Positions 8,768-38,480 of a stretch of DNA of 64,000 nt are shown here, one piece after another. The notes below the pieces were generated by a model that saw nothing but the letters and a program-made list of their open reading frames with translations, was not told where the DNA came from and did not search any database. This DNA is from a virus: the IMG/VR virus record IMGVR_UViG_3300045988_101835. One strand, given 5' to 3'. The translations under genes and the position numbers were made by a program. The first letter of the stretch is position 1. Every line of letters begins with the position of its first letter.

Positions 8768-8832
8768 ACCCCCGTGGATTGTTGGACAGCCGGAGGTCTC
8801 TTAGGAGGCTTCCGGTTTTTATTTGGACTATT

Positions 8833-9489
8833 ATGAGAGTATTGGGTATTGATCCGAGTTTTACACGGACGGGTCTTTCTATTTTAGATTCTGAGCTGGG
8901 TGTTATTGCTTATACCTCCATTGAGGTTCCGAAGGTTCTAAAGGAGGGTGGTAATATTTTTCATTTTGATAAGTCTTTTCAGGCCGCTACGTGGCATGCG
9001 AAGGCGGTTCGCTCATGGCTTACGGAGTACGATGATAGTGTTGATGCTGTGTTTGCAGAGATGCCTGCTATGCTTTCAGGGTCCGGCCCGTATCTCTTGC
9101 CTTTGCAGTGTATGCTTTACACGGAGTTTCAGGATTTACGGAAGTACTCTACTGCAGGTTTGACCAAGTCCCATTCGGGTCTATTTTCGCTTCTTACAGC
9201 CGATTTCTATCTCATCCCGCCTACGGCTATCAACTCTTTGGTTCGTCCATCTACGGCCAAGAAACGGGCCAAGAAAGGCGAGATTCCGGAAGCCCCTCCT
9301 AAGAAGATTTCCAAGGAGGAGGGCAAGAAGCTTATTGTTCAGTGGGTACTGGATCATTATAGTATTGCTATGAACCATGACGAGGCTTCGGCGGTTATCC
9401 TTGCTGCTATCGGCTTGGATATACTGGCTGGTACTTACAAGAAGACTTACCAGCTTTGCCCACGGCTACAGAAGGATCTATTTGATTGA
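8833..9489 (+). CDS. ruvC: RuvC-like Holliday junction resolvase
   Basis: MRVLGIDPSFTRTGLSIL at the N-terminus, with later AEMP and DEASAVILAAIG acidic motifs. Confidence 0.7.
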   Translation: MRVLGIDPSFTRTGLSILDSELGVIAYTSIEVPKVLKEGGNIFHFDKSFQAATWHAKAVRSWLTEYDDSVDAVFAEMPAMLSGSGPYLLPLQCMLYTEFQDLRKYSTAGLTKSHSGLFSLLTADFYLIPPTAINSLVRPSTAKKRAKKGEIPEAPPKKISKEEGKKLIVQWVLDHYSIAMNHDEASAVILAAIGLDILAGTYKKTYQLCPRLQKDLFD

Positions 9490-9815: not shown

Positions 9816-10925
9816 ATGGCTAAAAAGTCAGAGAAATCCGGGAAGTCGGAGTTGACTTCCCTTGCGGACGTGTTGAATGAGTATGGTATCGACCGTCCTA
9901 CTACGTTTGTCGATACGGGTATCGACACCTTGAATGACATCTTGGGTGGTGGTATTGCTCGTGGTAGCTCCTACGCTATGTGGGGTGTTGCGGGTTGTGG
10001 TAAGTCCACCATTGCGGCCCAGACGCTTCGTAGCTTCTGCCGTCAGGGTTTGAAGTGCGTCTTGGTGGATACGGAGCGCGCATGGAATGACCTTCAGCTT
10101 CAGTCTTTCGGTTTATGGGAGTACAAGGAGTCTGGTCTTCTCATTCACCTTACGGTCCGTGACTATGCTCAGTTGGAGGACGTATGCAAGGTTATATCTT
10201 CGGATCAGGACGCTGGTATTTCCTTTGCCGTCTTTGATAGTATGTCGGAGTTGGAGGCTTATGCGGATAAGACCTTAACGGTCAAGGATTGTCGTCCGGG
10301 TATTAAGGCACTGCAGGCATCCTTTTTGCTTCCTCGTATTAAGAACTGGTTTGCGGATGCCGACATTGCGTCCTTATGGCTCTTTCACGCCCGCGCTAAC
10401 CTCCAGATGGGTGTTCCTAACCCCTACGCCTCGAAGGACCGTCAGGATGGCGGATATGCTGCCCTTCACGTTCCGGACGCTATCATCAAGCTTTCTGTTG
10501 GTTTCAAGCTCAAGGAGAAGGAGGGTGACACCGAAGAGGTTTACGGTGTTGAGTTGTTCATGGAGGCTACCAAGAATAAGTTCAGCAAGCCTTTCCGTCA
10601 GAAGAAGGTCAAGCTCATTTTCGGTCAGGGTGTTAGCAAGCGCTATGCCACCATTGATGAAGCTGTGGCTTCGGGTGTCATCCGGAAGTCGGGTGCAAGT
10701 TATTCGCTTCCGTGGGGTGAGAAGTTCTTTGGTGTCAAGAAGCTTTATGCTATGGAGCATACCACCCTTAAGCGGTTATATGAGTATCTACGGACTAACG
10801 GTGCTTCGGAGGTGGGCACGAGTCCGGGCATTCCGGTCTATGTTGATCCTGCCGTTAATCCGTCGGACTTGGACCCGGAGACGGGTGAGCTCTTATCATC
10901 AGAAGGTTCCATTTCAAACTTGTAG
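9816..10925 (+). CDS. RecA/UvsX-family recombinase
   Basis: LNDILGGGIARGSSYAMWGVAGCGKSTIA is the RecA/RadA-type Walker A context. Walker B-like VFDSM. Confidence 0.75.
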   Translation: MAKKSEKSGKSELTSLADVLNEYGIDRPTTFVDTGIDTLNDILGGGIARGSSYAMWGVAGCGKSTIAAQTLRSFCRQGLKCVLVDTERAWNDLQLQSFGLWEYKESGLLIHLTVRDYAQLEDVCKVISSDQDAGISFAVFDSMSELEAYADKTLTVKDCRPGIKALQASFLLPRIKNWFADADIASLWLFHARANLQMGVPNPYASKDRQDGGYAALHVPDAIIKLSVGFKLKEKEGDTEEVYGVELFMEATKNKFSKPFRQKKVKLIFGQGVSKRYATIDEAVASGVIRKSGASYSLPWGEKFFGVKKLYAMEHTTLKRLYEYLRTNGASEVGTSPGIPVYVDPAVNPSDLDPETGELLSSEGSISNL

Positions 10926-11250
10926 TCATGGAGTTGTGTGATATTATTTCCATCACCTTGACAGCCGCGGGTGCTGCTCATCTTACGGAGTGTGATATGG
11001 ATTAGCGCGAGTATCATCATGTTTATAATGAGCTTCCGGAGAAGGAGATGCAGCGGTTCTATCCTGCGGACTATTATGAGGGTCAGGTTTTGACTATGTC
11101 TTTTTCCTCTCTTTTCTGTAGGTTTGAGCGCTATTCTTTCCATCTAGGTTCCGAAGTTCCATTTGTGGATTTGAAGCTAGTAGAATCCAACTAACATGTT
11201 TGGTTCTGCGTTTACGTATATGTAACGACTTACTATTTTATGATGATTAC

Positions 11251-11272
11251 AGGCCGGGGTTTTCCTCGGCCT
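11251..11272 (+). terminator. Hairpin aggccgggg-tttt-cctcggcct
   Basis: 8-9 bp stem with one G-U pair. Only a weak T tract follows. Confidence 0.4.
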
Positions 11273-11286
11273 TCGTTGTGGTTTAT

Positions 11287-11350
11287 GGGGGGGGGTTTGG
11301 GTTATGGGTTGTGTGTGGGTTGTGGTTGTGGGGTTCCGGGGTGCGTGGGG
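11287..11350 (+). repeat. G-tract cluster (G9, G3, G3, G3, G4, G4, G4) in a GT-rich non-coding spacer
   Basis: Read directly from the sequence. Lies between a hairpin and the motif at 11415. Confidence 0.6.
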
Positions 11351-11414
11351 CCGTGTGGTTTCGGTTGTTGCCTTCGTCGTATGTTGTGCTGGGTTGTTTT
11401 TGTTCTGGCAGAGG

Positions 11415-11430
11415 GTGCAATTCTATATCC
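11415..11430 (+). promoter_or_regulatory. Phage-specific promoter-like motif, C-variant (GTGCAATTCTATATCC)
   Basis: Identical 16-mer to 9607..9622. Confidence 0.5.
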
Positions 11431-11499
11431 ATATTTTTGTGGCATTGTTTATGCGTTGCACTGTTTTACGTTGATGTTTTTAATTAATTTGTTTTTCTT

Positions 11500-11799
11500 A
11501 TGAATGGTTATCCTCTGTTTGTAGGTTTTTCGTCTAGCAGCGATACGAGTTATACACCGCCGCAGACGTATTGTTCTCTTATGGTCATTCATTTCCGGAC
11601 TCTTGGTACTACAGAGCTTATTATTGATTATTGCTCGGGCTATGATTTCGGCGGACATCGTCTTCCTTCGGGTAGGCTGTGGTTGACCTTCGAGGATAGT
11701 CCTGCCTTGTCTTCGGGTCTTAGTGATCTTGTTGCTACTTTAGAGCGTGGTGGTCATTGTGTGTGCTTTGATTCGGTTACAGCGTTTAATTTATCTTGA
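11500..11799 (+). CDS. Hypothetical protein
   Basis: ORF-track ORF. Confidence 0.5.
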   Translation: MNGYPLFVGFSSSSDTSYTPPQTYCSLMVIHFRTLGTTELIIDYCSGYDFGGHRLPSGRLWLTFEDSPALSSGLSDLVATLERGGHCVCFDSVTAFNLS

Positions 11800-11802
11800 T
11801 TT

Positions 11803-12270
11803 ATGGTTCAGGTTCCTAGTATTGATAGCTACCTTTGGGGTTACATAGGTTGTGGTCTTAAGGTTCAGGATTGCCCTACGGGTTCTGTCTTCCGCTTTCG
11901 AGATGTCCGTCCGGGTAGCTGTAGTATGGACGGTGTTCGTCCTGTGTTGCGTCCTTTGCGTTGGTTGTTTACGTCGGCGGGCTTTCCTGTGTTGTGCGAT
12001 CTTATAGGGCTGTCTTATCCGGACGCCTATGATTTTGCCTTAGGTTCTGATTATGTTACCTTCAGGTGTCATGGGTCGGATAATGTTTACACGGCTTCGT
12101 GGGGCCATGATACACTCTGCTTCTTTGTAGGCTGCTCCGAGGTTGCATGTATTCCTCCTTATTTGGTGTATGATGTCTGCCATAGCTACTTTGTAGATTA
12201 CCGTGGTTTGCTGGATTGTGGTGCGGCTGTTCCTACGTCTTGTGTTGGTGACGTTTATGCGGAGGGTTGA
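11803..12270 (+). CDS. Hypothetical Cys-rich protein
   Basis: ORF-track ORF. Confidence 0.5.
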   Translation: MVQVPSIDSYLWGYIGCGLKVQDCPTGSVFRFRDVRPGSCSMDGVRPVLRPLRWLFTSAGFPVLCDLIGLSYPDAYDFALGSDYVTFRCHGSDNVYTASWGHDTLCFFVGCSEVACIPPYLVYDVCHSYFVDYRGLLDCGAAVPTSCVGDVYAEG

Positions 12271-12318
12271 TCCTTCGTGCCCTGTTCTGGTTTTGTTTTT
12301 TAGTGTTTATGCTGTAGG

Positions 12319-13509
12319 ATGGATATAGTTGTTAAGGATTACCTTGCTGCGCGTGACGTTCGGGTACGCGTCGAGGGGTTGACGGTGCTTCGTGGTGAGA
12401 GCTGTGCTGGTAAGAGTAGTACGTTCCGCGGTGTTGTTGCTGCTTGCATGAATAGGTTTACGTCGGGCTGCGTCCGTTGGGGTTCTGCGGGGTGTAGTGT
12501 CTCGGTTCGGTTTGCGGATGACGCCCGTGTTCTGCGTGTTACTAAGACGGAGAAGGGTGGTGCTGTTTATCGGCTTGGGGATGTTACTTATGATAAGACA
12601 CGGCGCGAGGTTCCGTCGGATGTTTGTAGCTTTCTGAACTTTGGTTTTCTGGAGGCGGGGAGCGATAGGCTTTCCTTGAGCTTCTGGGAGCAGTTTACGC
12701 CGCCGTTGCTTATGGGCTTCAGCCAGCGTCGTATTGGTGAGCTTCTAGGTTCTGGTTCTGGGTTATCGGACTGGAGTGTTTGCTGGCGTGGTCTTGGTGT
12801 TCGTCGTGACCGCTGCCGTGGTGCTTCTACGAGTTTGGGTAAGCTTTTGGATTCCGCTAAGCGTAGTAGGGAGTTGTATTGCTCGCTTCAGGCGTCGGGT
12901 TCTGCTCTTTATGGTAGGGTTACGGATGCCTATAGTAGACTTACGTCGTTGCGTTCGCGGTTGTCGTCCTTGCAGACGCTTCTTTCGTTATGCACGACGG
13001 ATTATGTCCATGCGTCTTCTGTTGTTTCGGGTTATTCACGGCTGTCTTCGATTTTGGACGCCTACGTCGCGTTTTTGTCCCGCCGCCGGGAGGTAGTATC
13101 GCTTCTGGATTTACATGCAGGCAGATCGCTTCTTTCGGGCCAAATTTCGAGTATTTTGGAGCCTTGCTTGGGGGTTTTAGATAAGCATTCGTCTTTGGTA
13201 TCGTCGTGTTCGTCGTTGGGTTCCCGTAGGTCGTTGCTTGTGTCTTTAGTGGATATGGTTACGCGCCGCGGTTCTCTGTCGTCGGGTCTTTCCGTCGCAT
13301 CGGAGTATGCTTCGTACCTTTCCGGGTTGGCGGATCTTGCCTCGCGTCGTGCTTCTCTTTTGTCGCGCCGTGAGCGCTTAGAGTCTTTGTTGTCGCTTCT
13401 TACTAGCCGTGGTTCGTTCGCTTCAGAGATTTCGCGTTTGGAGGGTTTGCTTGATAGTAGTGTTTGTCCTTTGTGCGGTTCCCCTTTGGGTTCGTTGGGG
13501 TGCTGCTGA
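12319..13509 (+). CDS. Rad50/SbcC-like ATPase, N-terminal half (P-loop, coiled coil, zinc hook)
   Basis: Walker A LRGESCAGKSST, a long S/L-rich coiled coil, and CPLCGSP hook 13 aa before the stop. Confidence 0.7.
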   Translation: MDIVVKDYLAARDVRVRVEGLTVLRGESCAGKSSTFRGVVAACMNRFTSGCVRWGSAGCSVSVRFADDARVLRVTKTEKGGAVYRLGDVTYDKTRREVPSDVCSFLNFGFLEAGSDRLSLSFWEQFTPPLLMGFSQRRIGELLGSGSGLSDWSVCWRGLGVRRDRCRGASTSLGKLLDSAKRSRELYCSLQASGSALYGRVTDAYSRLTSLRSRLSSLQTLLSLCTTDYVHASSVVSGYSRLSSILDAYVAFLSRRREVVSLLDLHAGRSLLSGQISSILEPCLGVLDKHSSLVSSCSSLGSRRSLLVSLVDMVTRRGSLSSGLSVASEYASYLSGLADLASRRASLLSRRERLESLLSLLTSRGSFASEISRLEGLLDSSVCPLCGSPLGSLGCC

Positions 13510-13551
13510 TTTACGTTTATGGTTTAGTTTTTAATTTTAATCATTTATTTT

Positions 13552-13974
13552 ATGGCTTTATCGTTGGAGGATATACAGCGTCGTAGGTCTGAGGTTGCTT
13601 CGAGCTTATCTGCCGCCCAGACGAAGTTGGGTGTTCTGGAGTCTCAGATTTCGTCATTAAGTAGTAGTTTAGGTTACGCTACGGTACCGTCTGAGTCACA
13701 GCTTCGTAGTGATCTTGCGGCTTTGGATCGTGAGATTGCGTCTTCGGAGTCATTGCTTTCGGCTGCGGAGTCGGAGATGTCTTCGTGGCTTTCTAAGTAC
13801 GATGCGCTTCGGGGTGTTTCTCCGGCTTCGGCCCCTTCGTCGCCGTCGCTTGCTGCCCCGTCGGGTTCTGGCTCGTCGGGTGTTGCTGCTTCGGCTTCAG
13901 GTCCTGTTGTTTCTTGGGGTCCTTCGGGTTCTGGTTCGCTTCCGGACTTCGATGATGATGATGCTCTTGCTTAG
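13552..13974 (+). CDS. Coiled-coil protein with an S/P-rich linker and acidic tip (LPDFDDDDALA)
   Basis: Heptad-like S/L pattern. The tail was read directly from the sequence. Confidence 0.55.
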   Translation: MALSLEDIQRRRSEVASSLSAAQTKLGVLESQISSLSSSLGYATVPSESQLRSDLAALDREIASSESLLSAAESEMSSWLSKYDALRGVSPASAPSSPSLAAPSGSGSSGVAASASGPVVSWGPSGSGSLPDFDDDDALA

Positions 13975-13977
13975 TCT

Positions 13978-14631
13978 ATGGCTTCTTTAGGTGATACATA
14001 CATAGGCTCTGGAGTCGAGCTTCGCTGTACGGATTGTATGGATTATATGCGGTCTTTGCCGGATAAGTCCTTCGACGTTGCTATTGTCGATCCGCCGTAT
14101 GGGATTCATGTTTCTAAGCGTGACTTGGGAGGTCTTTCGTCTAAGATTTACATGGGTTCATGGGATGACAGTATTCCGGATGGTTCTTACTTTTCGGAGT
14201 TGTTCCGTGTTTCGCGTCACCAGATTATCTGGGGTGCTAATTATTTTACGTCTTACTTGCCGGGTATTATGTCATGGGTTGTGTGGGATAAGAGTATTCC
14301 GGACAGCTTGAGCTTTGGTCAGGGTGAGCTTGCGTGGACGAGCTTCGGTGGTCCTTTGAAGATTGCGCGTATTCCTTACCGTGGTTCTGTTGGTGCAGAT
14401 GAGGTTCGGATTCATCCTACGCAGAAGCCTGTTAAGTTGTACGAGTGGTTGCTTTCGCGTTATGTTAAGCCGGGCATGCGTGTTCTGGATACCCATATGG
14501 GTAGTGGTTCTTCGGCCATTGCGTGCCTGAATGCTGGTCTTTCCTTCGTTGGATGTGAGCTTGATCCTATCCATTACGAGGACGCTAAGAACCGCTTTAC
14601 TTTCCATAGTAGACAGCAGCGATTGTTTTGA
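13978..14631 (+). CDS. DNA methyltransferase, beta-class N6A/N4C (N6_N4_Mtase family)
   Basis: Motif IV IVDPPYG precedes HPTQKP and motif I VLDTHMGSGSS. Confidence 0.85.
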   Translation: MASLGDTYIGSGVELRCTDCMDYMRSLPDKSFDVAIVDPPYGIHVSKRDLGGLSSKIYMGSWDDSIPDGSYFSELFRVSRHQIIWGANYFTSYLPGIMSWVVWDKSIPDSLSFGQGELAWTSFGGPLKIARIPYRGSVGADEVRIHPTQKPVKLYEWLLSRYVKPGMRVLDTHMGSGSSAIACLNAGLSFVGCELDPIHYEDAKNRFTFHSRQQRLF

Positions 14632-14633
14632 TT

Positions 14634-15224
14634 ATGAATTTGGATTTGTATACTAGATTTACGGAGTCCTATACTTCATTATGCCGTCGTCTTGAGGATG
14701 CCGACGAGCGTGTTCTCAGCTACGAGCGCCAGTTGGATGAGGTCCTTTCGGAGTCTTCGTTGCTTGAGCGCTGCCGTGACGCTATGGGTTCTGCTAAGGA
14801 GCTTCTTACGAAGTCTTCGCTTACACAGTGCGAGCGCCTTGCTACGCTTGCGGTTCGTTCTATCTTCGGTCTGGACGCTAAGGTTGTCTATGATTCGGAT
14901 GCCAGCAAGTTTCTGCTGGATTACGGTGACGGTAAAAAGAGCGATTTGACGACCGCGCAAAGTGGTGGTTTAATGGTCGTTGTGAGCTTTGTGTTCACGC
15001 TTTACTTGATCATGAAGCACAAGTCGCGCCGTGTTTTATTTATGGACGAGGCTTGGGTTCAGGTTTCGGCGGCTCATTATCCTCGGTTTATCGACTTTGT
15101 TCGGACCATCTGCCGTGACTTTGGTTTTGAGATTTTGCTTGTTTCGCATGATGCTCGCTTGACGCTTGACATGTGTGATAGGTGCTATGAGATACGTGAT
15201 GGGGAGGCCCATCGTTTAAAGTAG
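14634..15224 (+). CDS. Rad50/SbcC-like ATPase, C-terminal half (signature, Walker B, H-loop)
   Basis: AQSGG signature, VLFMDEA Walker B with D-loop, LLVSHD H-loop. Confidence 0.7.
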   Translation: MNLDLYTRFTESYTSLCRRLEDADERVLSYERQLDEVLSESSLLERCRDAMGSAKELLTKSSLTQCERLATLAVRSIFGLDAKVVYDSDASKFLLDYGDGKKSDLTTAQSGGLMVVVSFVFTLYLIMKHKSRRVLFMDEAWVQVSAAHYPRFIDFVRTICRDFGFEILLVSHDARLTLDMCDRCYEIRDGEAHRLK

Positions 15225-15233
15225 GATTTTATT

Positions 15234-15938
15234 ATGGATTGTTTGGTTAATAAGGATTTGCTGCCGGGTATTATTGCCGACAGTGGTCTTATGAAGTATG
15301 CCTTCGGTGAGCTTAAGGCTTTGGGTTATACTTCGGCGTCGGATGGTATAGATGGTATGTTGTATAATGATGTCATCGAGCTTTTAGCTGTGTTTGTGTC
15401 ACAGGGTCATAGTAATAATTCAGCTCCTATTATTTTGAATATGTTTCAGCGGTTGGCGCAGTATCAGCCGCTTTCACCGTTGCGGTTTACGGACGACGAG
15501 TGGGTTGAGTTCGCTGACGGGGAGTTTCAGAATATCCGCCGTAGCTGCTTCTTTAAGGAATCTCCGCATGATCGCGTTTATACTATCGAGGGTTATACGA
15601 AGTGTTCTTCGCGTCGCCGTGAGTTCGGGAGTTCTGAGATTACGGATGGTACGGGTTTCTGTTGGTCTGGCGGTGGTTTTCATGTCATGCATGACGGGGT
15701 TGTTCTTCCGGAGGCTTATACGCAGCGTTGTTACTTACCTGCGTCTTCTTATGCCGATGGCTTTAAGCCTTACGATTGCATATCGTTGCCTTGCACGGAG
15801 GTTGAGGTTTCTCCTAATAATTGGGAGTTTTTCGTCGAGGATACGTGCCCAGAGTTGCAGTTGTTGAAGACCCGTTACGAGTTGCAACCTATGCGTCCTG
15901 ATGTTTCCTTTGTTGGTAAACACATTCTACAGTTGTAG
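15234..15938 (+). CDS. Hypothetical protein
   Basis: 234-aa ORF-track ORF. Confidence 0.6.
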   Translation: MDCLVNKDLLPGIIADSGLMKYAFGELKALGYTSASDGIDGMLYNDVIELLAVFVSQGHSNNSAPIILNMFQRLAQYQPLSPLRFTDDEWVEFADGEFQNIRRSCFFKESPHDRVYTIEGYTKCSSRRREFGSSEITDGTGFCWSGGGFHVMHDGVVLPEAYTQRCYLPASSYADGFKPYDCISLPCTEVEVSPNNWEFFVEDTCPELQLLKTRYELQPMRPDVSFVGKHILQL

Positions 15939-15944
15939 TAGTTT

Positions 15945-16259
15945 ATGGGAGATTGTGGTTATAGCGGGTTTGTACCTGCAGGTGGTGAGTTTCAGTTTTA
16001 CGACCGTGTTTATAAGGTTGTTGCTTTGGTCGACTTGGTGAGTCCTATTCCTACGCCGTGTCCGGGCAAGACGGCATATTCCTATGCCCATTGCCCTAGT
16101 TGTGCATTTGCGGATAATCCGTGCCTTTGTGCACAGGCTAGGGATCTGATCGGCGGGTGCTGTGGTTCATGTCGCCGTGATGGTACGTCGGTCTGTATTT
16201 TCGAGCTTGGTGTTGCTGTCCGTGGGACGGGCGACATCGTTGATCCGGAGGAGGCTTAG
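15945..16259 (+). CDS. Hypothetical Cys-rich protein
   Basis: ORF-track ORF with multiple CxxC-like pairs. Confidence 0.5.
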   Translation: MGDCGYSGFVPAGGEFQFYDRVYKVVALVDLVSPIPTPCPGKTAYSYAHCPSCAFADNPCLCAQARDLIGGCCGSCRRDGTSVCIFELGVAVRGTGDIVDPEEA

Positions 16260-16262
16260 CTT

Positions 16263-16895
16263 ATGAACACTAAGGTTAAGATTTTCGAGTTGCAGGTTGG
16301 GGATTACCTTTATGGTCTCACCACGACTCTAGGCTTCAGCCCCTACAGGATTGCTTGCATTGAGCGTCATAAGGATATGGTTGACTTGGAGTTATCGGGT
16401 CAGGGTCCTTCTGTTGGCGAGTATCGTGTTCAGGTTTCGTGTAGAGAGGACACTGCGTTGCTGATGCTGGCGGGTACTATTTACTTTGATAGTATGCACC
16501 TTCTTTATTTGACGGGTTCTTTGTCGGCTTTATACGGCAATGCTACTTATATTGTGCAGTGCATTCAGGATATTGGGTATTCTGCTTTATCTTCGGGTTG
16601 GGTTTCTGCGGATTGTCGTGTTGCCAATTCGGGTTCCCTTGAGGTTGTCTGTGGGTACGATGAGGGTGCCTATCGTCGTGCTATTGTTGCGGGCATTAAC
16701 TTTGGGGGTGCTACTGGAGATTCTGGTCCTTACCTGCAGTTAGAGGTTAATTGCGCTCGTAATCTTTATTTTCGTCTGGGTAGCGATGGTAGAGTTTATA
16801 TGGTGGATGCGACAGCTTTCGAGTCTCGTCAGAAGGCACTTGCTGAGGAGATGAGTCGTTCGTGGTCCAATGCTTCGCCGAACAGCTATTTGTAG
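16263..16895 (+). CDS. Hypothetical protein
   Basis: ORF-track ORF. Confidence 0.6.
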   Translation: MNTKVKIFELQVGDYLYGLTTTLGFSPYRIACIERHKDMVDLELSGQGPSVGEYRVQVSCREDTALLMLAGTIYFDSMHLLYLTGSLSALYGNATYIVQCIQDIGYSALSSGWVSADCRVANSGSLEVVCGYDEGAYRRAIVAGINFGGATGDSGPYLQLEVNCARNLYFRLGSDGRVYMVDATAFESRQKALAEEMSRSWSNASPNSYL

Positions 16896-16924
16896 TTTTT
16901 TTTCTAACTTTCCTTCAATATTTA

Positions 16925-16956
16925 TTTGCATAATTAAATTAACTTTCTTATCTTTG
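16925..16956 (+). promoter_or_regulatory. Bacteroidota-type promoter (TTTG, 20 nt, TAtcTTTG), part of a repeated promoter-leader cassette
   Basis: tttg at 16925-16928 and tatctttg at 16949-16956. The cassette repeats at 32971-33053. Confidence 0.65.
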
Positions 16957-16987
16957 TGGTGTAGAGATAGTTCTACAGCTACTTAGT

Positions 16988-17356
16988 ATGGATTTGGTTA
17001 TGGCAAAGTATGTTTTGGAGAAGGTGATTTCGGGTTCGCAGTTCGTTTACACGGTATATGACGAGTCGGGTAATGTGGTTTCGACCCGCACGAGTTCTAG
17101 GAGTTATGTAGCGTGCACGGCAGACGGTGAGTTTTATTTCTGTCGTCTTAGCTTGATTGGGTCTGCTATTCGGAAGTACGAGCGTGCTATTTCGGATTTA
17201 TCGGCTATTGAGTCTGGTGCTTCTGCGCGTCAGGTTCTGGGCTACTATAAGCGTACTATTTACTCGGATTACAATCTTGATGATCTCCGGGAGCTTGCTT
17301 CTCGTGCGGAGGTTCGTCTTCCGAAGTTGCGGGCTATTGCTTATCTGGCGGAGTAG
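16988..17356 (+). CDS. Hypothetical protein
   Basis: ORF-track ORF with an alternative ATG at 17000. Confidence 0.55.
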   Translation: MDLVMAKYVLEKVISGSQFVYTVYDESGNVVSTRTSSRSYVACTADGEFYFCRLSLIGSAIRKYERAISDLSAIESGASARQVLGYYKRTIYSDYNLDDLRELASRAEVRLPKLRAIAYLAE

Positions 17357-17363
17357 CTATATT

Positions 17364-17405
17364 CCTGCGGGGAGTTCTTTTTCTCTCCGCAGGCTTTCAT
17401 TTTTA
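17364..17405 (+). terminator. Rho-independent terminator (cctgcggggag-N8-ctctccgcagg, then T-rich tail)
   Basis: 11-bp stem with one G-U pair, read directly from the sequence. Confidence 0.65.
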
Positions 17406-17430
17406 GTGTTGAATTTTAATTTTGTGGATT

Positions 17431-17637
17431 ATGATTGAGACAATGCGTGTTAAGGACTTTCTGAAGGATTCTCGCCGTCATGGGCGTTATGCTATCGGGA
17501 CTTCTCCGTCTAACTTGAAGACGGTTTCGGGGTACTCTGATAATACGTCGGGAGGACGCCGCTTCCTTCGTTTTTCGCATATGGAGGTTGTCGTTGATGA
17601 CTTCACGACGGTTGTCGTTGACTTTTCGCAGCGTTAG
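17431..17637 (+). CDS. Hypothetical protein
   Basis: ATG at 17431 within ORF-track ORF 17422..17637. Confidence 0.45.
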   Translation: MIETMRVKDFLKDSRRHGRYAIGTSPSNLKTVSGYSDNTSGGRRFLRFSHMEVVVDDFTTVVVDFSQR

Positions 17638-17675
17638 CGTCCTGCCATTTGGTTAACTTTTAATATGCAATCAGT

Positions 17676-18563
17676 ATGAGTAGTATGATGACTATGGGTT
17701 TGGGTTTAGCTGCTGGGTACACGAGCGCTGCTACGGATATTCCTATGAAGTTCTGCCCTAAGTGTGGTGTTTCGAAGCCTTTGTCTTTGTTTTCGCGTAG
17801 TTCTGCGAATAAGGACGGCCTTCAGTGTTGGTGTCGCTCTTGCCGGAGTATTGCCGCTAAGGCTCGTGCAGCTCGTCGCAAGGCTGCTAAGGCTGCTGCT
17901 AAGGAGGAGGGTGCTAGTAAGTCGGATGTTTCTACGCCTTCTACTGTGGAGGATGGTTCTACTCATATTCGGCGTTCGGATTATCATGTTGTTTCGGCTT
18001 CGGACGCGGAGGTTCTTGGCGGCGTAGTTCCGGCGGGTAAACCTGCGTCGAATTCGGTTCTGCGCGCTCATGGTTTTCAGCGTTGCTCTAAGTGTCATTC
18101 TATCCTGCCGCTTTCTGAGTTCACTTCGTCTTCTGGTCGTGTAGACTACTACTGTAAGGAGTGTCGTAAGTCGGCTACTGACTCGTCACGTTCTGCTGCT
18201 TCGTCTGCGAAGTTGTGTGCTTCCAGTGCGGAGTTGAAGAAGGCTATGTCGGTTGAGGTTCCGGCGGCTAAGGTTGTGGCCCGCAATGGTGTTCCTACGT
18301 CGGAGTCTATGCTTCCGCGTCGCCTTCGTAGGTTATCCCCCCCCCTTGCGGCGGATGCCGTTCCGGGGAGTTCCGACCGCGTGTCTTCAGTGGATGTGTG
18401 TATTGAGTCGGGTGTGTGCTCTGATTTGAGTGATACGCGCGGCTTTAACCCTTTGTTCGAGGGCATCTCGTCGGAGGAGTTGTTTTCGGAGCTTGAGGCT
18501 CGTGGTTTTGCTCTGGCTGGCGTTTACCGCCTTCGTGTCATTCGGGAGCGCGTTGTCAGGTAG
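17676..18563 (+). CDS. Protein with two repeated CxxC...CxxC zinc-ribbon modules
   Basis: CPKCG..KPLSLFS......DGLQCWCRSCR and CSKCH..LPLSEFT.....VDYYCKECR. Confidence 0.6.
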   Translation: MSSMMTMGLGLAAGYTSAATDIPMKFCPKCGVSKPLSLFSRSSANKDGLQCWCRSCRSIAAKARAARRKAAKAAAKEEGASKSDVSTPSTVEDGSTHIRRSDYHVVSASDAEVLGGVVPAGKPASNSVLRAHGFQRCSKCHSILPLSEFTSSSGRVDYYCKECRKSATDSSRSAASSAKLCASSAELKKAMSVEVPAAKVVARNGVPTSESMLPRRLRRLSPPLAADAVPGSSDRVSSVDVCIESGVCSDLSDTRGFNPLFEGISSEELFSELEARGFALAGVYRLRVIRERVVR

Positions 18564-18592
18564 TACGTTTACGGTTTATGTAGTTTATTGTT

Positions 18593-18892
18593 ATGGAAGT
18601 CACTCGTGGTTTACTGTTGGATTCTTTGAAGGGGTCTGACAACTTTGATAAGTGTATTTGTCTTGCTAAGTACCTGATTTCGGAGATTGGTGGGACATTT
18701 ACTATCGAGCATATGATGTCGGATACCTATGTGTTTACCTTTCGCTCTTATGATATTGAGGATGCGCTTGCTGTTGTATTCCGGGGTACTCGCTGTACGG
18801 TTTTTCAGTCTGGAGAGGCTCAGCGTATCTTCGTTGGTCCTTTCTCCGGGGATGATCTTAGTGTTCTTTTGGAGCTTTTCGGTGTCGAATGA
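18593..18892 (+). CDS. Hypothetical protein
   Basis: ORF-track ORF that overlaps the next gene by 4 nt. Confidence 0.55.
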   Translation: MEVTRGLLLDSLKGSDNFDKCICLAKYLISEIGGTFTIEHMMSDTYVFTFRSYDIEDALAVVFRGTRCTVFQSGEAQRIFVGPFSGDDLSVLLELFGVE

Positions 18893-19779
18893 GTCGCTTT
18901 CTTTTCATTACGGACTTGCATATAACCACCACGTGTCCGGTCCGCACGGGTAATCCTTTGGAGGATGTTTGTTCTAAGCTTCGGTGGTGTGTCGACTTCG
19001 TCAATGAGCATGATGCTACGTTGCTTCTTGGTGGTGACATCTTCGATAAGCCTACGGTTCCTCTGGAGGCTATTAACATGGTCATCGAGGTCCTTCGTGG
19101 TTGCCGCCGTATGCCATTAGGTGTCTGGGGCAATCACGATCAGCTTTACCGTGCTGCAGAGAATAATCCTAAGTGTGCCCTGTATACACTTGCTTCGTCC
19201 CGTGTCATTGCGCTGATTGATGACCGGGATGTTGAGTTTGAGGATTGTACTGTCACTAATGTTCTACCTTTGCAGACGAGTTCGAGTCCTCAGATTTTCA
19301 TTTATCACGGTTTCCTCAACCAGAAGGACGGTCGGTTCACGGTTCCGCTTTCGGACATTGCTTCTCCATCGAGTCCTACGTTGGTTCTGCTGGGGCATGA
19401 CCATATTGAGTATGCGGACTTGGAGTTGTCGGACTCGGTTACGGTTGTTCGTCCGGGCAGCTTGTTTCGGAATCGCCGTGTTGAGACGTCGGAGCGTCCT
19501 CCTAAGGGGGTCTATGTTGAGGTTTCGAATGGGTCTATTTCTCACCGCATGGTCGAGGTTCCGGCTCGTTCTTTCGACAGCATCTTTGCTGTTAAGACGG
19601 ATGGTTCCGTTGCGCCGTCGGAGGATGTTGATTATGACAAGCTTCTAGAGACGCTTCAGGCGAGCTGTGGTTCTGATGATCTCACGTTTATAGATGCTCT
19701 TTCGTCGGTTGCGGACGAGGACGTCGTTTTGTACTGCGAGGGTGTCGTAGCGGAGAGTCTTCAGTCTTCGGCGCGTTAG
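18889..19779 (+). CDS. Mre11/SbcD-like (T4 gp47-like) metallophosphoesterase nuclease
   Basis: Motifs ITDLH, GGDIFD, GNHD and GHDH in canonical order. Confidence 0.8.
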   Translation: MSRFLFITDLHITTTCPVRTGNPLEDVCSKLRWCVDFVNEHDATLLLGGDIFDKPTVPLEAINMVIEVLRGCRRMPLGVWGNHDQLYRAAENNPKCALYTLASSRVIALIDDRDVEFEDCTVTNVLPLQTSSSPQIFIYHGFLNQKDGRFTVPLSDIASPSSPTLVLLGHDHIEYADLELSDSVTVVRPGSLFRNRRVETSERPPKGVYVEVSNGSISHRMVEVPARSFDSIFAVKTDGSVAPSEDVDYDKLLETLQASCGSDDLTFIDALSSVADEDVVLYCEGVVAESLQSSAR

Positions 19780-19803: not shown

Positions 19804-21027
19804 ATGTCTAATATTAATGATTTTAAGTTAGAGGGGGCTGTGGCGTCGGATGCCATGTCCCCTCTTAGCACGTTAGGTCTTGATGATGTTTCCGCTTCGG
19901 AGCTTGCGGGCATTGCAGAAGCTTCGTCGGGTCTTCCTTATGACCATTACATTTCGTTTTCGAAGCTTCAGGCTACTCCTATGCTTCGTGTTCTGGATTG
20001 CCTTTCAAAGTTGGCAGCGGCTTTGTCAGGCAAGAACGTCCTGATTTCAGCCAATGAGAAGCTCATCACGGTCAAGTATGACAATGCTGCCTACCAGTTT
20101 GTTTTTCGCATTCCGAACTCGTCGGGTAAGACGTTGTCACCTTTTGCCATTCCCATTTCAACCCTGAAGGCATTGTTCGGGAATGTCATGGCTCACTTGG
20201 TTCTCGTCGAGCAGAAGAGTTCCTTCGGGGATCAGCCTGCGGGGCTGTACGCTCATTTCTCGGGGAACCTTGTCTTTGTAGCTACGCAGCCGTTCGACGA
20301 GGGTATGTACAAGTTTGCCTACGACAAGATGACGGATCAGCTTGATGGATCTTACATTAGAACTCACCTTCGTTCCTTTACGTCGCTGCTTGCTTTTTCG
20401 GAGCGGACGTCGGAGCGCCATTTGATCTGTCAGGGTGGGATGTCATATTTGAACATCGGCTCAATTCTGGGGCGCATGAAGTCATTCTTTGGTAATCATG
20501 ACTGCATCATCTCCCGGTATTTGGTTGACTGTATTGCCACGCTTGCTGAGTTCGACGGCACGTCTGTTTCGGGTTTCTTTGCGGACGATCATGCTTCTTT
20601 GAAGTTCGGTGATAGCTGCTACCTTCGATTCGCCTACACTTCGGGGGAGGCTGTTTCTAGGTTCATGAGTCCTTTGTTCCGCAATTCGTTCTCTTATGAC
20701 ACTTCCATCCGTATCGATGATACTCCTTTCTGTCAGTTGCTGACGGTTATCGGGTCTCTGGATTACTTCACGGACACTATTAAGGTTTCCTTCGCTACTA
20801 ATGACTTTACGGTCGTGGCTCACAAGAAGGATGGTTCGGATGCAACTTACAAGTTCCAGTACAAAGAGGGTACGAGTCCGTCGGGGACTATCATCGTGTC
20901 GATTCCGGTTTTGCTTGGTGTTCTGTCGAAGGCTTCGGATGTCACCAAGTATAGCTGTGCTTCTAGTAGCCTTGTTGTTGACTTGGGTGATTGCACTTAC
21001 TGCGTACGCTCTGTGCTAATGGCTTAG
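19804..21027 (+). CDS. Candidate DnaN-like sliding clamp
   Basis: 407 aa. LLAFSERTSERHLICQGGM resembles the DnaN domain-II block fA.s.de.R..L.Gv. Replication-gene context. Confidence 0.4.
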   Translation: MSNINDFKLEGAVASDAMSPLSTLGLDDVSASELAGIAEASSGLPYDHYISFSKLQATPMLRVLDCLSKLAAALSGKNVLISANEKLITVKYDNAAYQFVFRIPNSSGKTLSPFAIPISTLKALFGNVMAHLVLVEQKSSFGDQPAGLYAHFSGNLVFVATQPFDEGMYKFAYDKMTDQLDGSYIRTHLRSFTSLLAFSERTSERHLICQGGMSYLNIGSILGRMKSFFGNHDCIISRYLVDCIATLAEFDGTSVSGFFADDHASLKFGDSCYLRFAYTSGEAVSRFMSPLFRNSFSYDTSIRIDDTPFCQLLTVIGSLDYFTDTIKVSFATNDFTVVAHKKDGSDATYKFQYKEGTSPSGTIIVSIPVLLGVLSKASDVTKYSCASSSLVVDLGDCTYCVRSVLMA

Positions 21028-28165: not shown

Positions 28166-30949
28166 ATGATGATACGTTCGGTGCGGTTTATAGAGTCTTA
28201 TTATAAGGTCCTGCATAACGGTTGTGAGTTTTACAACCGGGATGCAGGTCTTATGACGTCTGATGATTTTAAGTCTTCGGATGTCAAGTGGCTCATTGTG
28301 TTTCCGTCTTCGTCGTTCGACAAGGATAATTCGATGACGCCTACGGTTCTGTTGGACTTTGTTCGCAGTTCGTGTCCGGGTGTCTTCATTGACTTTGCTT
28401 TTCTGCCTTGCCGGGATGACATTCGGTGGTATGACAAGGAGAGTATGCCTTACGCTATTGGTGTGTCATCCCATCTGGACGCTTCTCACTTTGACATTGT
28501 AGGCTTTAGTATTTCGTGCTTGTACGAGATTCCGGTAGTTCCGTGGATGCTTCAGTCTTTTTCGCGCTGCGATAAGCCTATTCCGCTTTCGTGGTCGGAG
28601 CGGAGTAAGTATAATATTGATGAGCTTCCGGTCATCTATGCAGGCGGTGCTTCTGTGGTCTACTCAGACATTCTGTTTGGTGATTTAGGCGATGGTCGCA
28701 AGAGCTATCTGGATTTCATGCATCTGGGTCAGGTCTGGTCCCAGACTCGCCTACTGCAGCTCATGTTGAATAAGAAGTACAAGAATCCGATTCGTATTGG
28801 TCGTGTTCCTTATCTTCTTTGGGAGCGTGGTGATCGTCATTGCTATATGCCGCAGGCTTATGATATTGTCTTTGATGGTTGTCGTGTAGTATCGGTTACG
28901 CCGACGTCATCTTCCGTCCCTTCGTCGGTTGTTTTTAATACGGGTCAGGAGAAGCCGTCGGGGCTTCTTGGTGCTTCTCGGGGTTATCTTCGTGGTTCGG
29001 GTGGCAACGCGGGGCTGGCTATGGTCTCTGCTGCGGAGGGTTGTGGCTTTACGGGTAACTGTACCTTTTGTGCCGAGGGTCACATTGCGGGGGGCTTGCA
29101 TGAGGAGTCGCAGGATGATATTGTTCGTATGGCCCGGGCAGCTAAGATATCGTCGGGTGCGGATACGGTTAAGCTTGCGTCTTACAATTTGAATTATCTT
29201 ACGGATTGGAAAGGCACGGTTGCTAGGGTTCAGGAGGTTTTTCCTACTGTTTCCTTCAGCAATATGCGGATGGAGGAGCTTGGTCGGGATGAGGATGCTA
29301 TGGAGCTGCTTTTTCAGCTAGGGTTCCGTCGCGGCACTGCTCCTATTGAGGGTATTAGTCCTCGTATTCGTAATGGGTATTATAATAAGGGGCTGTCCGA
29401 GGAGGCGCTGGATTCTTACATGCGTTTCATGGTTCATAGGGGTTGCTTGGACATCAAGGTTGGTATTGTCCTTTGCGGCCTTGAGGAGGGTGCTGATTGG
29501 CAGTGGTTGTATGACTTCACTAAGCGCTGGAAGGACTACGCTGCTTCCCGCGGGGGTAAGCTACCTATTCGGTATCGTTGTACGCCTTTGGTTCAGTATC
29601 CTTTGACGCCTATGGAGTATACGGCTAAGTCCGCCGCTCGCATTAGTTATGAGGATGGTGAGTGGGTTCCACGGTATTGGTTTGACAAGTTTGCTGCGGA
29701 GCTTGATACGCGCATTCAGGTTAACGGCTATCGTTACAGTACGTTGCTGGAGCAGGTTTTTGTGAGCTTGGGTCGTAAGATGACTTCGTCCTTGCAGTCG
29801 GTTTTGTCTTCCGGGCATTTCCTGTACAACATGCGCGCTTTGACTACTTCGTCTTTTATGGATGATATCCGTTCGGTTATTTCCGCCGATGCTGCATCTT
29901 TCTTTGAGATGCCGGATATTGATTCCTATGTTTCCATTCTGTCGGCGGTGTCCTCTCCTTTTTCAGAGGTTTGTAAGTTGCAGGGACGTAACATCCAGTC
30001 GGGGCTTTCGGCGCTTCCTATGAGTCGTTGCCTTCGTACTAATGCAGTAGATCGCCTTACATGCTATGAGAAGATTTCAGGGGGTTGTACGGGGTGTGTT
30101 GGGAAGGCTGCCTCCTTGCGTCCATTTAACCGTCAGTTGCTATCTTCGGTCACTTCGAAGGATATTCTTGCCGTTGTTAAGCCAGAAACGGTCCAAACGC
30201 TTCGTTTCAGGATAAAGAGGTATGGTTACGCCACAGTTTTAAATCCGCGTCATACAGCGCATATTTTGGCCTCGGCATTAATGCAGCATTCTGAGGTTTC
30301 GGCTGCGTCCTTTATTCGTGTATCGAAGATTCACTCTATGTATGGTCAGTCTTATGCGGATAGTCATTGGGACGTTAGTGGGAGTCAGTTAGTAGACCTT
30401 GAGTTTAGGACATTGCTTTCTACAGATGTGGTTAATGCTGCGATTGCGTCTGCGAATTCGATACTACAGTCTTTTACGATTATGGGCTTCTCGGATGGGA
30501 GTCTTGATTCCGGTATTGAGTTGACAGACATGAATGTTTTCACGTTCCGGTCGGATTTGCCATTGGAGGTTTGGGATTTCGTTTTGCCGGAGTACGATGG
30601 TTCTGTCATGGTCCTTGAGGGTGACAAGTATTATCCTCATCTTTTGAAGTCGGGGCCGTTATCTGCCCCGGTTGTTGGGGGTGCTTCGGGAGGTTCGAAG
30701 GGTGTCTTCGTGCTTCCGGTCCGTTGCAATCCGTGGTACTATCTTCGTGCTGTTTTGCGTCCTAAGCGAGTACATCCCAATAAACTTTATAGAGATACGT
30801 TTATTGACTGCGTTACAACGGTTAGGGTTAGGGATTATGCTGCTTGTAGTGGCTGTGGTTCCTCGAATGCCGTTTATGATATAGGTTCGGGTAAGCCTTA
30901 TAACTTCTGCACGAGTTGTTTGGCAAAGTTATTATTGAAGAAGTTGTGA
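28166..30949 (+). CDS. B12-binding-domain radical SAM protein (TIGR03960/DUF2344-like) with an atypical CX5CX2C cluster motif and a C-terminal zinc ribbon
   Basis: AAEGCGFTGNCTFCAEG. GTAPIEGISPRIRNGYYNKGLSEE resembles TFAPEAGSqRLRdvInKgite. The N-terminal region resembles a B12 domain. CSGCG...CTSC at the end. Confidence 0.65.
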   Translation: MMIRSVRFIESYYKVLHNGCEFYNRDAGLMTSDDFKSSDVKWLIVFPSSSFDKDNSMTPTVLLDFVRSSCPGVFIDFAFLPCRDDIRWYDKESMPYAIGVSSHLDASHFDIVGFSISCLYEIPVVPWMLQSFSRCDKPIPLSWSERSKYNIDELPVIYAGGASVVYSDILFGDLGDGRKSYLDFMHLGQVWSQTRLLQLMLNKKYKNPIRIGRVPYLLWERGDRHCYMPQAYDIVFDGCRVVSVTPTSSSVPSSVVFNTGQEKPSGLLGASRGYLRGSGGNAGLAMVSAAEGCGFTGNCTFCAEGHIAGGLHEESQDDIVRMARAAKISSGADTVKLASYNLNYLTDWKGTVARVQEVFPTVSFSNMRMEELGRDEDAMELLFQLGFRRGTAPIEGISPRIRNGYYNKGLSEEALDSYMRFMVHRGCLDIKVGIVLCGLEEGADWQWLYDFTKRWKDYAASRGGKLPIRYRCTPLVQYPLTPMEYTAKSAARISYEDGEWVPRYWFDKFAAELDTRIQVNGYRYSTLLEQVFVSLGRKMTSSLQSVLSSGHFLYNMRALTTSSFMDDIRSVISADAASFFEMPDIDSYVSILSAVSSPFSEVCKLQGRNIQSGLSALPMSRCLRTNAVDRLTCYEKISGGCTGCVGKAASLRPFNRQLLSSVTSKDILAVVKPETVQTLRFRIKRYGYATVLNPRHTAHILASALMQHSEVSAASFIRVSKIHSMYGQSYADSHWDVSGSQLVDLEFRTLLSTDVVNAAIASANSILQSFTIMGFSDGSLDSGIELTDMNVFTFRSDLPLEVWDFVLPEYDGSVMVLEGDKYYPHLLKSGPLSAPVVGGASGGSKGVFVLPVRCNPWYYLRAVLRPKRVHPNKLYRDTFIDCVTTVRVRDYAACSGCGSSNAVYDIGSGKPYNFCTSCLAKLLLKKL

Positions 30950-35537: not shown

Positions 35538-35603
35538 CGGGTTGGGTCCTTAAGATTAAGTCTACTCTCTCGGATATGGGTGTTTCTTTGAACAGTGATT
35601 TTT

Positions 35604-37889: not shown

Positions 37890-38468
37890 ATGGTTGATCG
37901 CGTGGATATTGTAGATTTAGATTCTGCTGCTGAGGTTAGTGTTTCGTCGGCTCGTGTTGTTATAGATAAGCGGCTGTTGCTTTCTTTTTACATGCATCCT
38001 ACGGATGAGACTACGGAGGCGGAGCTTGCTGAGATTAATAAGGTCATCAGCATTGTTTTGAATACTCATTTTGGTAAGTATTACCGCATGTTTGATGACT
38101 TGCGTTCGCAGGCTCTTGCTACTATTATAGAGCGTCATGATCGCTTTGACTCGAAGATGGCAGCTTATCCTTATCTGTATACCATGATTCGCAATGAAGC
38201 GGGTAATTTGATTCGTCGTTTGCTTCGTGAGGATGACCTTGAGGTTCTGCCGCCGTCACGCGGTCGTGTTGCAGAGATTATTCCGAGTGTTTTAGACGAG
38301 CTTCTGCCGTTCTTGTCGGGTGACTCTCCGTTTACACGTATAGAGATTCCGCATGGTCTTGTAGGTCCGTTTCTTGTCTTTTGCCAATGTGGCTTAAACA
38401 AGAAACAGTCGGAGTCGGAGGCTATGGAGTCGGTTATCGGCAAATTGGTTGACATTTTTATTTTTTAA
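37890..38468 (+). CDS. Candidate phage sigma factor (sigma-70 region 2 / T4 gp55-like)
   Basis: 192 aa. HDRFDSKMAAYPYLYTMIRNEAGNLIRRLLRE resembles gp55 [30 protein letters not shown]. Hydrophobic tail LVDIFIF. Confidence 0.45.
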   Translation: MVDRVDIVDLDSAAEVSVSSARVVIDKRLLLSFYMHPTDETTEAELAEINKVISIVLNTHFGKYYRMFDDLRSQALATIIERHDRFDSKMAAYPYLYTMIRNEAGNLIRRLLREDDLEVLPPSRGRVAEIIPSVLDELLPFLSGDSPFTRIEIPHGLVGPFLVFCQCGLNKKQSESEAMESVIGKLVDIFIF

Positions 38469-38480
38469 TTTTATTATCGC

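Follow-up and report, generated by a model that had tools for sequence, protein, structure and literature searches.

A Rad50/SbcC-like ATPase predicted to be made as three separate polypeptides in a T4-like phage and its relatives

We have analysed a 64,000-nucleotide stretch of viral DNA (IMG/VR virus record IMGVR_UViG_3300045988_101835, hereafter called the window) in which a Rad50/SbcC-like ATPase is encoded in pieces between positions 12319 and 15224. The window is from a T4-like gut phage, with a gp20-type portal and a gp23-type capsid protein as markers, and the region in question consists, as read from the window sequence, of four tightly packed open reading frames (ORFs) on the + strand: an N-terminal half of Rad50/SbcC (piece 1), a short middle ORF (piece 2), a DNA methyltransferase and a C-terminal half of Rad50/SbcC (piece 3). 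The reading that we favour, with a probability of about 0.8, is that this locus encodes an end-processing nuclease of the Mre11-Rad50 type (T4 gp47/gp46, SbcDC) whose Rad50 is naturally made as three polypeptides. Relatives for comparison were taken from IMG/VR, a search of 5.8 billion proteins, a set of 1.84 billion cluster representatives and cultured phages. Apparently the three-gene arrangement of Rad50 is widespread in phages and has never been described before: full-text literature searches for a split, fragmented or bipartite Rad50/SbcC found no paper describing it, and the labels given in public annotations ('SbcC', 'ATPase', 'chromosome segregation ATPase' or 'exonuclease') do not connect the pieces with one another.

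The first of the pieces, the N-half (12319-13509, + strand, 396 aa), comprises the Walker A lobe, the Q-loop, a long ascending helix and a CPLCG zinc hook. The Walker A motif, or P-loop, reads GESCAGKSS (residues 26-34, codons at 12394-12420, + strand), the hook codons can be read directly from the sequence at 13465-13479 (+ strand, residues 383-387), and the frame is closed by a TGA stop at 13507-13509, just 10 residues past the hook. Residues G26, S28, G31, K32 and S33 of Walker A and C383, P384, C386 and G387 of the hook are invariant in the alignment of N-half homologues (alignment A2), and so is Q125, which lies in a (W)xQF motif and may be the Q-loop glutamine, an assignment made by position only. 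The initial annotation of this DNA, made from the letters alone, had described an ORF with a P-loop, a coiled coil and a CPLCG hook followed by an early stop, and both the translation and the invariant motifs agree with that description. Pfam searches with single sequences were nearly blind to the Rad50 pieces, whereas profiles built from homologues did match. The profile of the N-half had T. maritima Rad50 as its top match in the PDB (3qf7/3tho, E = 4e-5), followed by M. jannaschii Rad50, and its C-terminal end weakly matched 6zff and 1l8d, two structures of the Rad50 hook; AAA_23, the Pfam family of the Rad50/SbcC N-terminus, was found in seven of ten N-half members (best value 1.4e-6). The search of 5.8 billion proteins returned 40 N-half homologues, of 368-421 aa barring two fragments (219 and 376 aa) and a fused protein, P0052, which is the only homologue that does not end just past CPxCG. 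This motif, the predicted zinc hook, is present without exception in the N-halves of all lineages checked.

The other half of the ATPase head lies in the last of the four ORFs, the C-half (14634-15224, + strand, 196 aa), in which an N-terminal helix of about 60 residues leads into a lobe carrying the signature, Walker B and H-loop motifs. All three motifs, which the initial annotation had already assigned to this ORF, were read from the translation on the + strand: the signature QSGG at residues 109-112 (14958-14969), Walker B as VLFMDE at residues 134-139 (15033-15050) and the H-loop SHD at residues 171-173 (15144-15152). Among C-half homologues SGG, hhhhDE and SHD are invariant; the Rad50 motifs of the N- and C-halves remain so in homologues down to 25-35% identity, and judged from the sequences their occurrence is far beyond chance. 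The C-half profile (alignment A1) matched P. furiosus Rad50 over its full length (3qku, E = 1.8e-3) and also aligned with the Walker B/H-loop region of ABC transporters. In an AlphaFold2 (AF2) model of the concatenated pieces the C-lobe has a predicted local distance difference test score (pLDDT) of 70-88, and Foldseek matched it to the C-terminal chains of P. furiosus Rad50 (1f2t_B, 1us8_B and 1f2u_B) with template modelling (TM) scores of 0.60-0.71 and root-mean-square deviations of 3.5-4.4 Å; further matches were to SMC heads, to C. thermophilum Rad50 and to Lamassu LmuB. In the search of 5.8 billion proteins the homologues of the C-half are 194-204 aa long, barring two shorter fragments, and across lineages the C-half always stands alone, with about 190-240 aa. 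A profile search of the 1.84 billion cluster representatives identified 2,242 C-half relatives at E <= 1e-3, of which 425 reach E <= 1e-10. The best 150 of the 2,242 are all <=260 aa, and mostly 190-240 aa, so that there is no full-length Rad50 among these best 150.

Between the two halves, piece 2 (13552-13974, + strand, 140 aa) is best described as a post-hook helix-loop-helix subunit, a description that draws on a gene fusion in P0052 and on conservation of position and motif. It is composed of a predicted helix, the sequence LGYATVPSESQL, a second predicted helix, a disordered tail of about 50 residues rich in Ser, Gly and Pro, and the acidic end LPDFDDDDALA; the two helices and the acidic tail are as the initial annotation would have it, which had noted a coiled-coil ORF with an acidic tail at this place. 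Middle pieces across lineages keep the pattern helix, L-G-x-x-x-(V)P-x-x-E-x-L, helix, and by position and motif the piece is conserved in L007, L012, L014, L024, L025, L028 and L029, in the Bacillus prophage phBC6A51 (BC1854) and in the Bacillus jumbo phage 0305phi8-36 (gp7). The disordered acidic/aromatic tail is present in the window, L007, L014, L024, P0052 and 0305phi8-36 and absent from L012, L025, L028, L029 and phBC6A51, while the helix-loop-helix is always kept. This tail is probably a protein-interaction or DNA-mimic element, and we take it to resemble the C-terminal tails of SSB-type proteins. In P0052 (547 aa, 33% identity) the hook, CPYCG, runs in frame into a homologue of the middle ORF with the acidic end DADFDGM, and a separate C-half of 205 aa follows. 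Residues 399-507 of P0052 align with positions 438-549 of the 888 of the Rad50 model PRK02224 (E = 1e-7), positions that cover the hook and the first part of the descending coil, and they also match the centre of LmuB models. As P0052 fuses pieces 1 and 2, the middle ORF can be assigned to the post-hook arm, in line with the earlier suggestion that it might be a descending coiled coil.

The split layout is present in every lineage sampled, down to 35% identity. Six IMG/VR relatives with about 90-100% identity (L001-L006) share the four-gene layout of the window, and a clade with 62% identity on contigs of 132-142 kb (L007-L009) has N-half, middle piece and C-half without the methyltransferase; its N-half (399 aa) ends just past CPLCG, its middle piece (126 aa) has an acidic end, and 9 nucleotides (nt) separate the middle piece from the C-half. 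More distant relatives carry N-half, middle piece and C-half of 345, 77 and 204 aa (L012), 425, 96 and 198 aa with the nuclease directly after (L014), 421, 132 and 193 aa followed by the nuclease (L024) and 380, 101 and 196 aa (L025). An additional ORF is found within the series in L028 (N-half of 363 aa, an insert of 142 aa, middle piece of 90 aa and C-half of 215 aa, then the nuclease) and in L029 (N-half, middle piece of 80 aa, a thymidylate kinase and C-half of 219 aa). In phBC6A51 the N-half is BC1852, annotated 'Exonuclease SbcC' (518 aa), which ends GGVCPLCESPMSFDHSH just after its CPLC hook, and it is followed by BC1854 (middle piece, 77 aa), BC1855 (C-half, 211 aa, 'Chromosome segregation ATPases') and BC1857 ('SbcD'). 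In 0305phi8-36 the Mre11-like nuclease is fused to the Rad50 N-half as gp8 (L032, 633-2942), which ends 18 residues past a CPTC hook, and downstream of it gp7, a middle piece ending DDDDDMEFEE, and gp5, the C-half, are separate. The window and all relatives have three cistrons, with the single exception of P0052, which has two. Comparison of the window with L003 gave ratios of non-synonymous to synonymous substitution rates (dN/dS) of 0.18 (N-half), 0.19 (middle piece), 0.08 (methyltransferase) and 0.03 (C-half), and all pieces are under purifying selection. A sequencing or assembly artefact can be ruled out, given the same breaks in many independent contigs and in cultured phages together with these dN/dS values. 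The comparison of synteny that had been proposed at the outset shows the order of N-half, middle piece and C-half to be retained, without a methyltransferase outside the clade of about 90% identity; the split is ancient and conserved and was not caused by the methyltransferase.

The gene that interrupts the series in the window (13978-14631, + strand, 217 aa) encodes an orphan beta-class DNA N6/N4 methyltransferase which has been inserted and is not part of the ATPase. Its family assignment, which had been predicted from a DPPY motif, is borne out by PF01555 (6.6e-14; 52.8 bits against a cut-off of 26.7), by phrog_67 (3e-41) and by the order of its motifs, with DPPY at residues 38-41 ahead of the S-adenosylmethionine-binding loop DTHMGSGSS as in the beta class. 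Homologues of up to 48% identity are known from 838 unrelated phage records. The enzyme, 45-48% identical to those of Tetrasphaera, Cellulophaga and Flavobacterium phages, is a typical orphan phage methyltransferase (PF01555, phrog_67) in which the position inside a split gene is the only thing that stands out; its role is presumably self-protection against restriction. At this position the methyltransferase is restricted to the clade of the window with about 90% identity, and it was not seen there in any relative outside that clade (L007 and the other sampled lineages). Since lineages without the methyltransferase are already split, the split is old and the methyltransferase arrived later at a pre-existing junction; its insertion between cistrons 2 and 3 took place in the recent ancestor of the clade. 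The initial annotation had suggested that the arrangement might record a gene insertion at the apex of the coiled coil, and this idea is not supported because the insertion is secondary and at the other junction: the methyltransferase lies one gene beyond the hook, is restricted to one clade, and other lineages are split without it. Different genes occupy the junctions elsewhere, namely the thymidylate kinase of L029 (968-1564), a 238-aa gene of 0305phi8-36 (gp6; L032, 3243-3959), both between middle piece and C-half, the 142-aa ORF of L028 (5324-5752) and an extra ORF in phBC6A51, both between N-half and middle piece, and a 100-aa ORF at a split-Rad50 junction in L031 (2745-3047). The cistron junctions appear to be recurrent, tolerated insertion points for accessory genes.

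Pieces 1 and 2 of the window are in one reading frame, parted by two stops, the TGA at 13507 and a TAG at 13522-13524. The latter lies in the 42-nt spacer between them (13510-13551, + strand), which also contains the AT-rich leader TTTTTAATTTTAAT at 13528-13541. Leaders of this kind, TTTTTAATTTT(A/T)AT, are located just 5' of some start codons (13528-13541 and 38462-38475); with four matches in the window against 0.19 expected the leader is not a general motif of the genome, and a similar one is found in the spacer between N-half and middle piece of L007 (7586-7600), where the two pieces differ in frame. Spacers of 3 nt and 2 nt set the methyltransferase apart from piece 2 and piece 3, respectively. 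An overlap of the methyltransferase stop with the start region of the C-half, as claimed previously, holds only for an alternative TTG start at 14628, and not for the ATG at 14634, which is 2 nt downstream of the stop (TGA, 14629-14631); relatives start at ATG. No terminator-like site stands out within 12319-15224; the numbers of promoter and terminator matches in the scan equal those of shuffled sequence.

The nuclease partner is encoded by a metallophosphoesterase gene of the Mre11/SbcD type (18889-19779, + strand; PF00149, 1.4e-7; TIGR00619 (sbcD), 9e-7) with the motifs DxH, GDxxD, GNHD, H and GHDH. It begins 3.66 kb past the end of the C-half, close to the 3.6 kb given for an Mre11-like partner in the initial annotation, and in L014, L024 and L028 the nuclease adjoins the C-half directly. 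The lineage-specific genes which separate the two in the window (15234-18892, + strand), and which are absent from those three relatives, encode a Tad3-like protein, a 104-aa protein rich in Cys, three proteins with 210, 122 and 99 aa, and a 295-aa double-zinc-ribbon protein. On the other side of the split gene there are a RuvC-like resolvase (8779-9489, + strand; phrog_159, 5e-11) and a RecA/UvsX-like recombinase (9816-10925, + strand; PF00154, 5.7e-12; phrog_97, 6e-29), and a RecA-like gene is linked to the split-Rad50 loci of L010, L025 and L028 too.

The locus is most probably the counterpart of T4 gp46/gp47, with a role in end processing during recombination-dependent replication. Through a shared zinc ion, the hook at the end of the piece 1 ascending helix would join two complexes or two arms. 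The helix-loop-helix of piece 2, of about 80 residues, may lie on the hook-proximal helix of piece 1 and so replace the first stretch of the descending coiled coil; its helices (residues 401-435 and 444-483 of the model) would pair with residues 299-377 of piece 1. Piece 3 would use its N-terminal helix, of about 60 residues (531-593 of the model), to pair with the helix of piece 1 close to the head (residue 152 onwards), and the lobe of piece 3, docked onto that of piece 1, would complete an ABC-ATPase head working with the SbcD/Mre11-like nuclease. That two chains can form such a head has a precedent in P. furiosus Rad50, for which the head crystals were reportedly obtained with N and C fragments that had been expressed separately (PDB 1F2T, 1F2U, 1US8); two-chain Rad50 heads of this kind are functional in vitro.

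A number of observations weigh against this reading. The AF2 model of the concatenated pieces, for which the alignment (A7) was usable but shallow, has a pLDDT of 60.9 and a predicted TM score of 0.31, with the P-loop of the N-lobe below 50; it is reliable only for the C-lobe and parts of the arm, the N-lobe as such having a pLDDT <60. A model of the N-half by itself reached a pLDDT of 54.5, and in Foldseek its best match, at E = 0.055, was not significant, the top matches being N chains of Rad50, SMC and RecN heads. Gene content, motifs, conservation, selection and the fusion in P0052 are observed, but the non-covalent assembly of the three pieces is something that we infer, because the structure models are of low confidence. 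Helix lengths do not correspond either: piece 1 has an ascending helix of about 225 residues, to which piece 2 could oppose about 75 and piece 3 about 60; some 80 residues of piece 1 (about 215-298, pLDDT <50) have no partner strand, and the N-half varies from 345 to 518 aa across lineages when pieces 2 and 3 are nearly constant. With helix lengths unmatched and the length of the N-half varying, the arm is not a canonical matched antiparallel coiled coil. Finally, the usual D-loop aspartate is missing from the C-half, where DEAWVQVS is found after Walker B, and the sequence of the nuclease had no significant match in the PDB. The view put forward in the initial annotation, that a single Rad50/SbcC-like ATPase is divided over the three ORFs and has to assemble from separate polypeptides, is supported.

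It is extremely unlikely that a Rad50 gene was simply broken by insertion of the methyltransferase, or is a decaying pseudogene, with the pieces as remnants or as an artefact of assembly. A foreign gene does sit between Rad50-derived ORFs, and the genome has other mobile elements, a TnpB gene and inteins. However, numerous independent contigs as well as cultured phages have the same breaks but no methyltransferase there, every piece has a dN/dS within 0.03-0.19, each piece has an ATG of its own and a tight or overlapping coupling to its neighbour, and the methyltransferase is not located at the hook break. We also consider it very unlikely that the pieces are joined into one chain by readthrough or reassignment of stops, by programmed frameshifting or by protein trans-splicing. 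The common reading frame of pieces 1 and 2 and the methyltransferase in the window, the inteins elsewhere in the genome and the single chain that P0052 makes of pieces 1 and 2 might suggest as much, but two different stops, TGA and then TAG, separate pieces 1 and 2, the frames differ in L007, L012, L014 and L024, and there are ORF overlaps of 8-14 nt in L012, L014 and L024. Stop reassignment is disfavoured by the long uninterrupted ORFs found across the window. There are no extra residues at the junctions to accommodate split-intein halves, as piece 1 ends 10 residues past the hook and piece 2 opens with a helix, and neither split-intein halves nor a conserved frame relation nor a slippery site was found at the junctions of the window and the relatives compared. 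Pieces 2 and 3 are never fused among the best 150 C-half relatives.

Two further explanations are improbable. One, which we rate the lower, would make the module an SMC-like defence or counter-defence system, similar to Lamassu LmuB or to abortive-infection systems of the ATPase-nuclease type. LmuB is indeed among the matches (Foldseek 9hqu, 1e-5; the hook region of P0052 with PADLOC, 8.5e-11), and an anti-Thoeris Tad3-like gene and the methyltransferase are nearby; against this, there is no LmuA or LmuC partner, the N-half of the window matched LmuB at just 0.006, and PADLOC found nothing besides weak LmuB matches in the neighbours tested. The conserved partners are instead an SbcD/Mre11 phosphoesterase and a RecA/UvsX-like recombinase in a T4-like replication-recombination block, and the CPxCG hook together with AAA_23 is a signature of Rad50/SbcC. 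The other explanation accepts pieces 1 and 3 as the ATPase and regards piece 2 as a separate regulator or adaptor that is only genetically linked, whose acidic tail binds SSB-interacting proteins, the nuclease or a DNA-binding surface. Piece 2 lacks helices long enough to cover the unpaired part of the piece 1 helix, its sequence is less conserved than the heads, and its acidic/aromatic tail, which resembles those of SSB-type proteins, recurs in distant lineages. Yet piece 2 is always located between pieces 1 and 3, usually right after the hook (an extra ORF comes first in L028 and phBC6A51), in P0052 it continues the hook in frame, the fused region aligning with the coiled coil past the hook in models of Rad50 and LmuB, and in several lineages it is the tail that is missing while the helix-loop-helix is always present.

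The predicted three-polypeptide Rad50 shares with the Rad50/SbcC and Mre11/SbcD proteins of T4 (gp46/gp47), E. coli (SbcCD), archaea and T. maritima the two-lobe ABC (ATP-binding cassette) head, with Walker A in the N-lobe and signature, Walker B and H-loop in the C-lobe, the long helices between the lobes with a CxxC zinc hook at their far end, and the calcineurin-type phosphoesterase partner; in the window the genes are linked to a T4-like recombinase and a resolvase. It differs from them in having three cistrons, with breaks 8-18 residues past the hook and before the head-proximal descending helix, and in its unmatched helix lengths, the often acidic/aromatic tail of piece 2 and the absence of the D-loop aspartate. 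The engineered P. furiosus Rad50cd (1F2T, 1F2U, 1US8) also consists of separate N and C chains, which there reconstitute an active head, and the C-lobe of our model superposes on its chain B; those chains, however, are laboratory truncations without arm and hook, whereas here the split is natural, the hook is on the N-terminal chain and a third chain is added. Lamassu LmuB and other SMC-like defence ATPases have an SMC/Rad50-like head and arm in common with the window proteins, as reflected in structural and profile matches, but here there is no LmuA/LmuC, and there are a hook, an Mre11-type nuclease and a phage replication-recombination context. The same enzyme system is rearranged in another way in the Mre11/Rad50 fusion proteins of large double-stranded DNA viruses and of plasmids (Yoshida et al., 2011, PMC3175470; bioRxiv 10.64898/2026.07.21.739742), and 0305phi8-36 gp8 belongs to both sets; those papers cover fusion, while the present arrangement is one of fission. 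According to the 2011 paper (PMC3175470), the fusion protein of 0305phi8-36 is one in which an SbcC P-loop NTPase segment 'was not observed'; the explanation is that this segment has a gene of its own, gp5, the middle piece being gp7.

Some further features of the window and its relatives were recorded. Directly 3' of the C-half, the Tad3-like gene (15234-15938) matches PF25185, the type I Thoeris inhibitor family, over residues 18-130 (2.4e-26); L003 has a homologue at the same place and in L007 the position holds a 252-aa ORF. The 295-aa protein (17676-18563) has two zinc-ribbon modules matching the N-terminal parts of PHROGs of the endonuclease VII/HNH type (phrog_1035, 5.4e-18), a nuclease domain was not detected in it, and a homologue is encoded in L007 (10751-11467). 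A protein of about 400 aa, without a match in Pfam, PHROG or NCBIfam, is encoded 3' of the nuclease in each of these loci (window 19804-21027; L010 9116-10336; L024 9118-10320; L025 6675-7862; L029 3508-4671) and may be a further conserved partner of the module. The stretch of about 1.4 kb from the RecA-like gene to the N-half (10926-12318) has a single convincing ORF (11803-12270), which is conserved in L003, and a comparable ORF-poor gap is present in L007 (5409-6376); no Rfam match and no notable repeat was found at about 10900-12330, and Rfam and tRNA scans gave no matches. The host of the phage is probably a member of the Bacteroidales. A Muribaculaceae bin of metagenome-assembled sequence contains a contig near-identical to the window, and Shine-Dalgarno leaders are absent from the window genes. 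Strand asymmetry is extreme over the whole window (1-64000), with every long ORF on the + strand, 32.7% T against 19.4% A and 27.9% G against 20.0% C, and in the five genes checked A makes up just 3-7% of third codon positions; due to this asymmetry the proteins are rich in Ser, Leu, Arg, Gly and Val. Mobile elements include a TnpB-type gene at 235-1344 (OrfB_IS605, 4.9e-24; Cas12f1-like TNB domain, 1.2e-21) and inteins with LAGLIDADG homing endonucleases in two genes (35595-37880 and 40109-43414), one intein being within a clamp-loader-like (DNA pol III delta') gene and the other within a 1101-aa protein. A 927-aa protein (28166-30949) has weak radical-SAM matches under the Pfam cut-offs, and a radical-SAM gene of L029 (5075-8204) is interrupted by an intein.

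The way in which the ATPase head of Rad50 communicates with the remote zinc hook and the long coiled coils is still under debate. We see about even odds for a broader proposal, that of a previously undescribed three-subunit Rad50 which is held together non-covalently, has a discontinuous and shorter descending arm, uses the acidic tail as a built-in regulator or recruiter, offers its gene junctions as recurrent landing sites and is common to phages of very different hosts. These would be Bacteroidota gut phages, Bacillus prophages and a Bacillus jumbo phage and, probably, phages of Microbacterium and Acidobacteria. If this is true, the discontinuous arm means that head and hook must communicate without relying on an uninterrupted coiled coil of two strands, and if the complex works, neither covalent continuity nor strand matching of the descending coil is needed. 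A split Rad50 would also offer structural biology small parts that can be expressed separately. For annotation, thousands of stand-alone proteins of about 200 aa named 'ATPase' or 'chromosome segregation ATPase' are Rad50 C-halves, and for genome evolution the locus illustrates how the boundaries of split genes turn into sites at which the insertion of methyltransferases and other accessory genes is tolerated.

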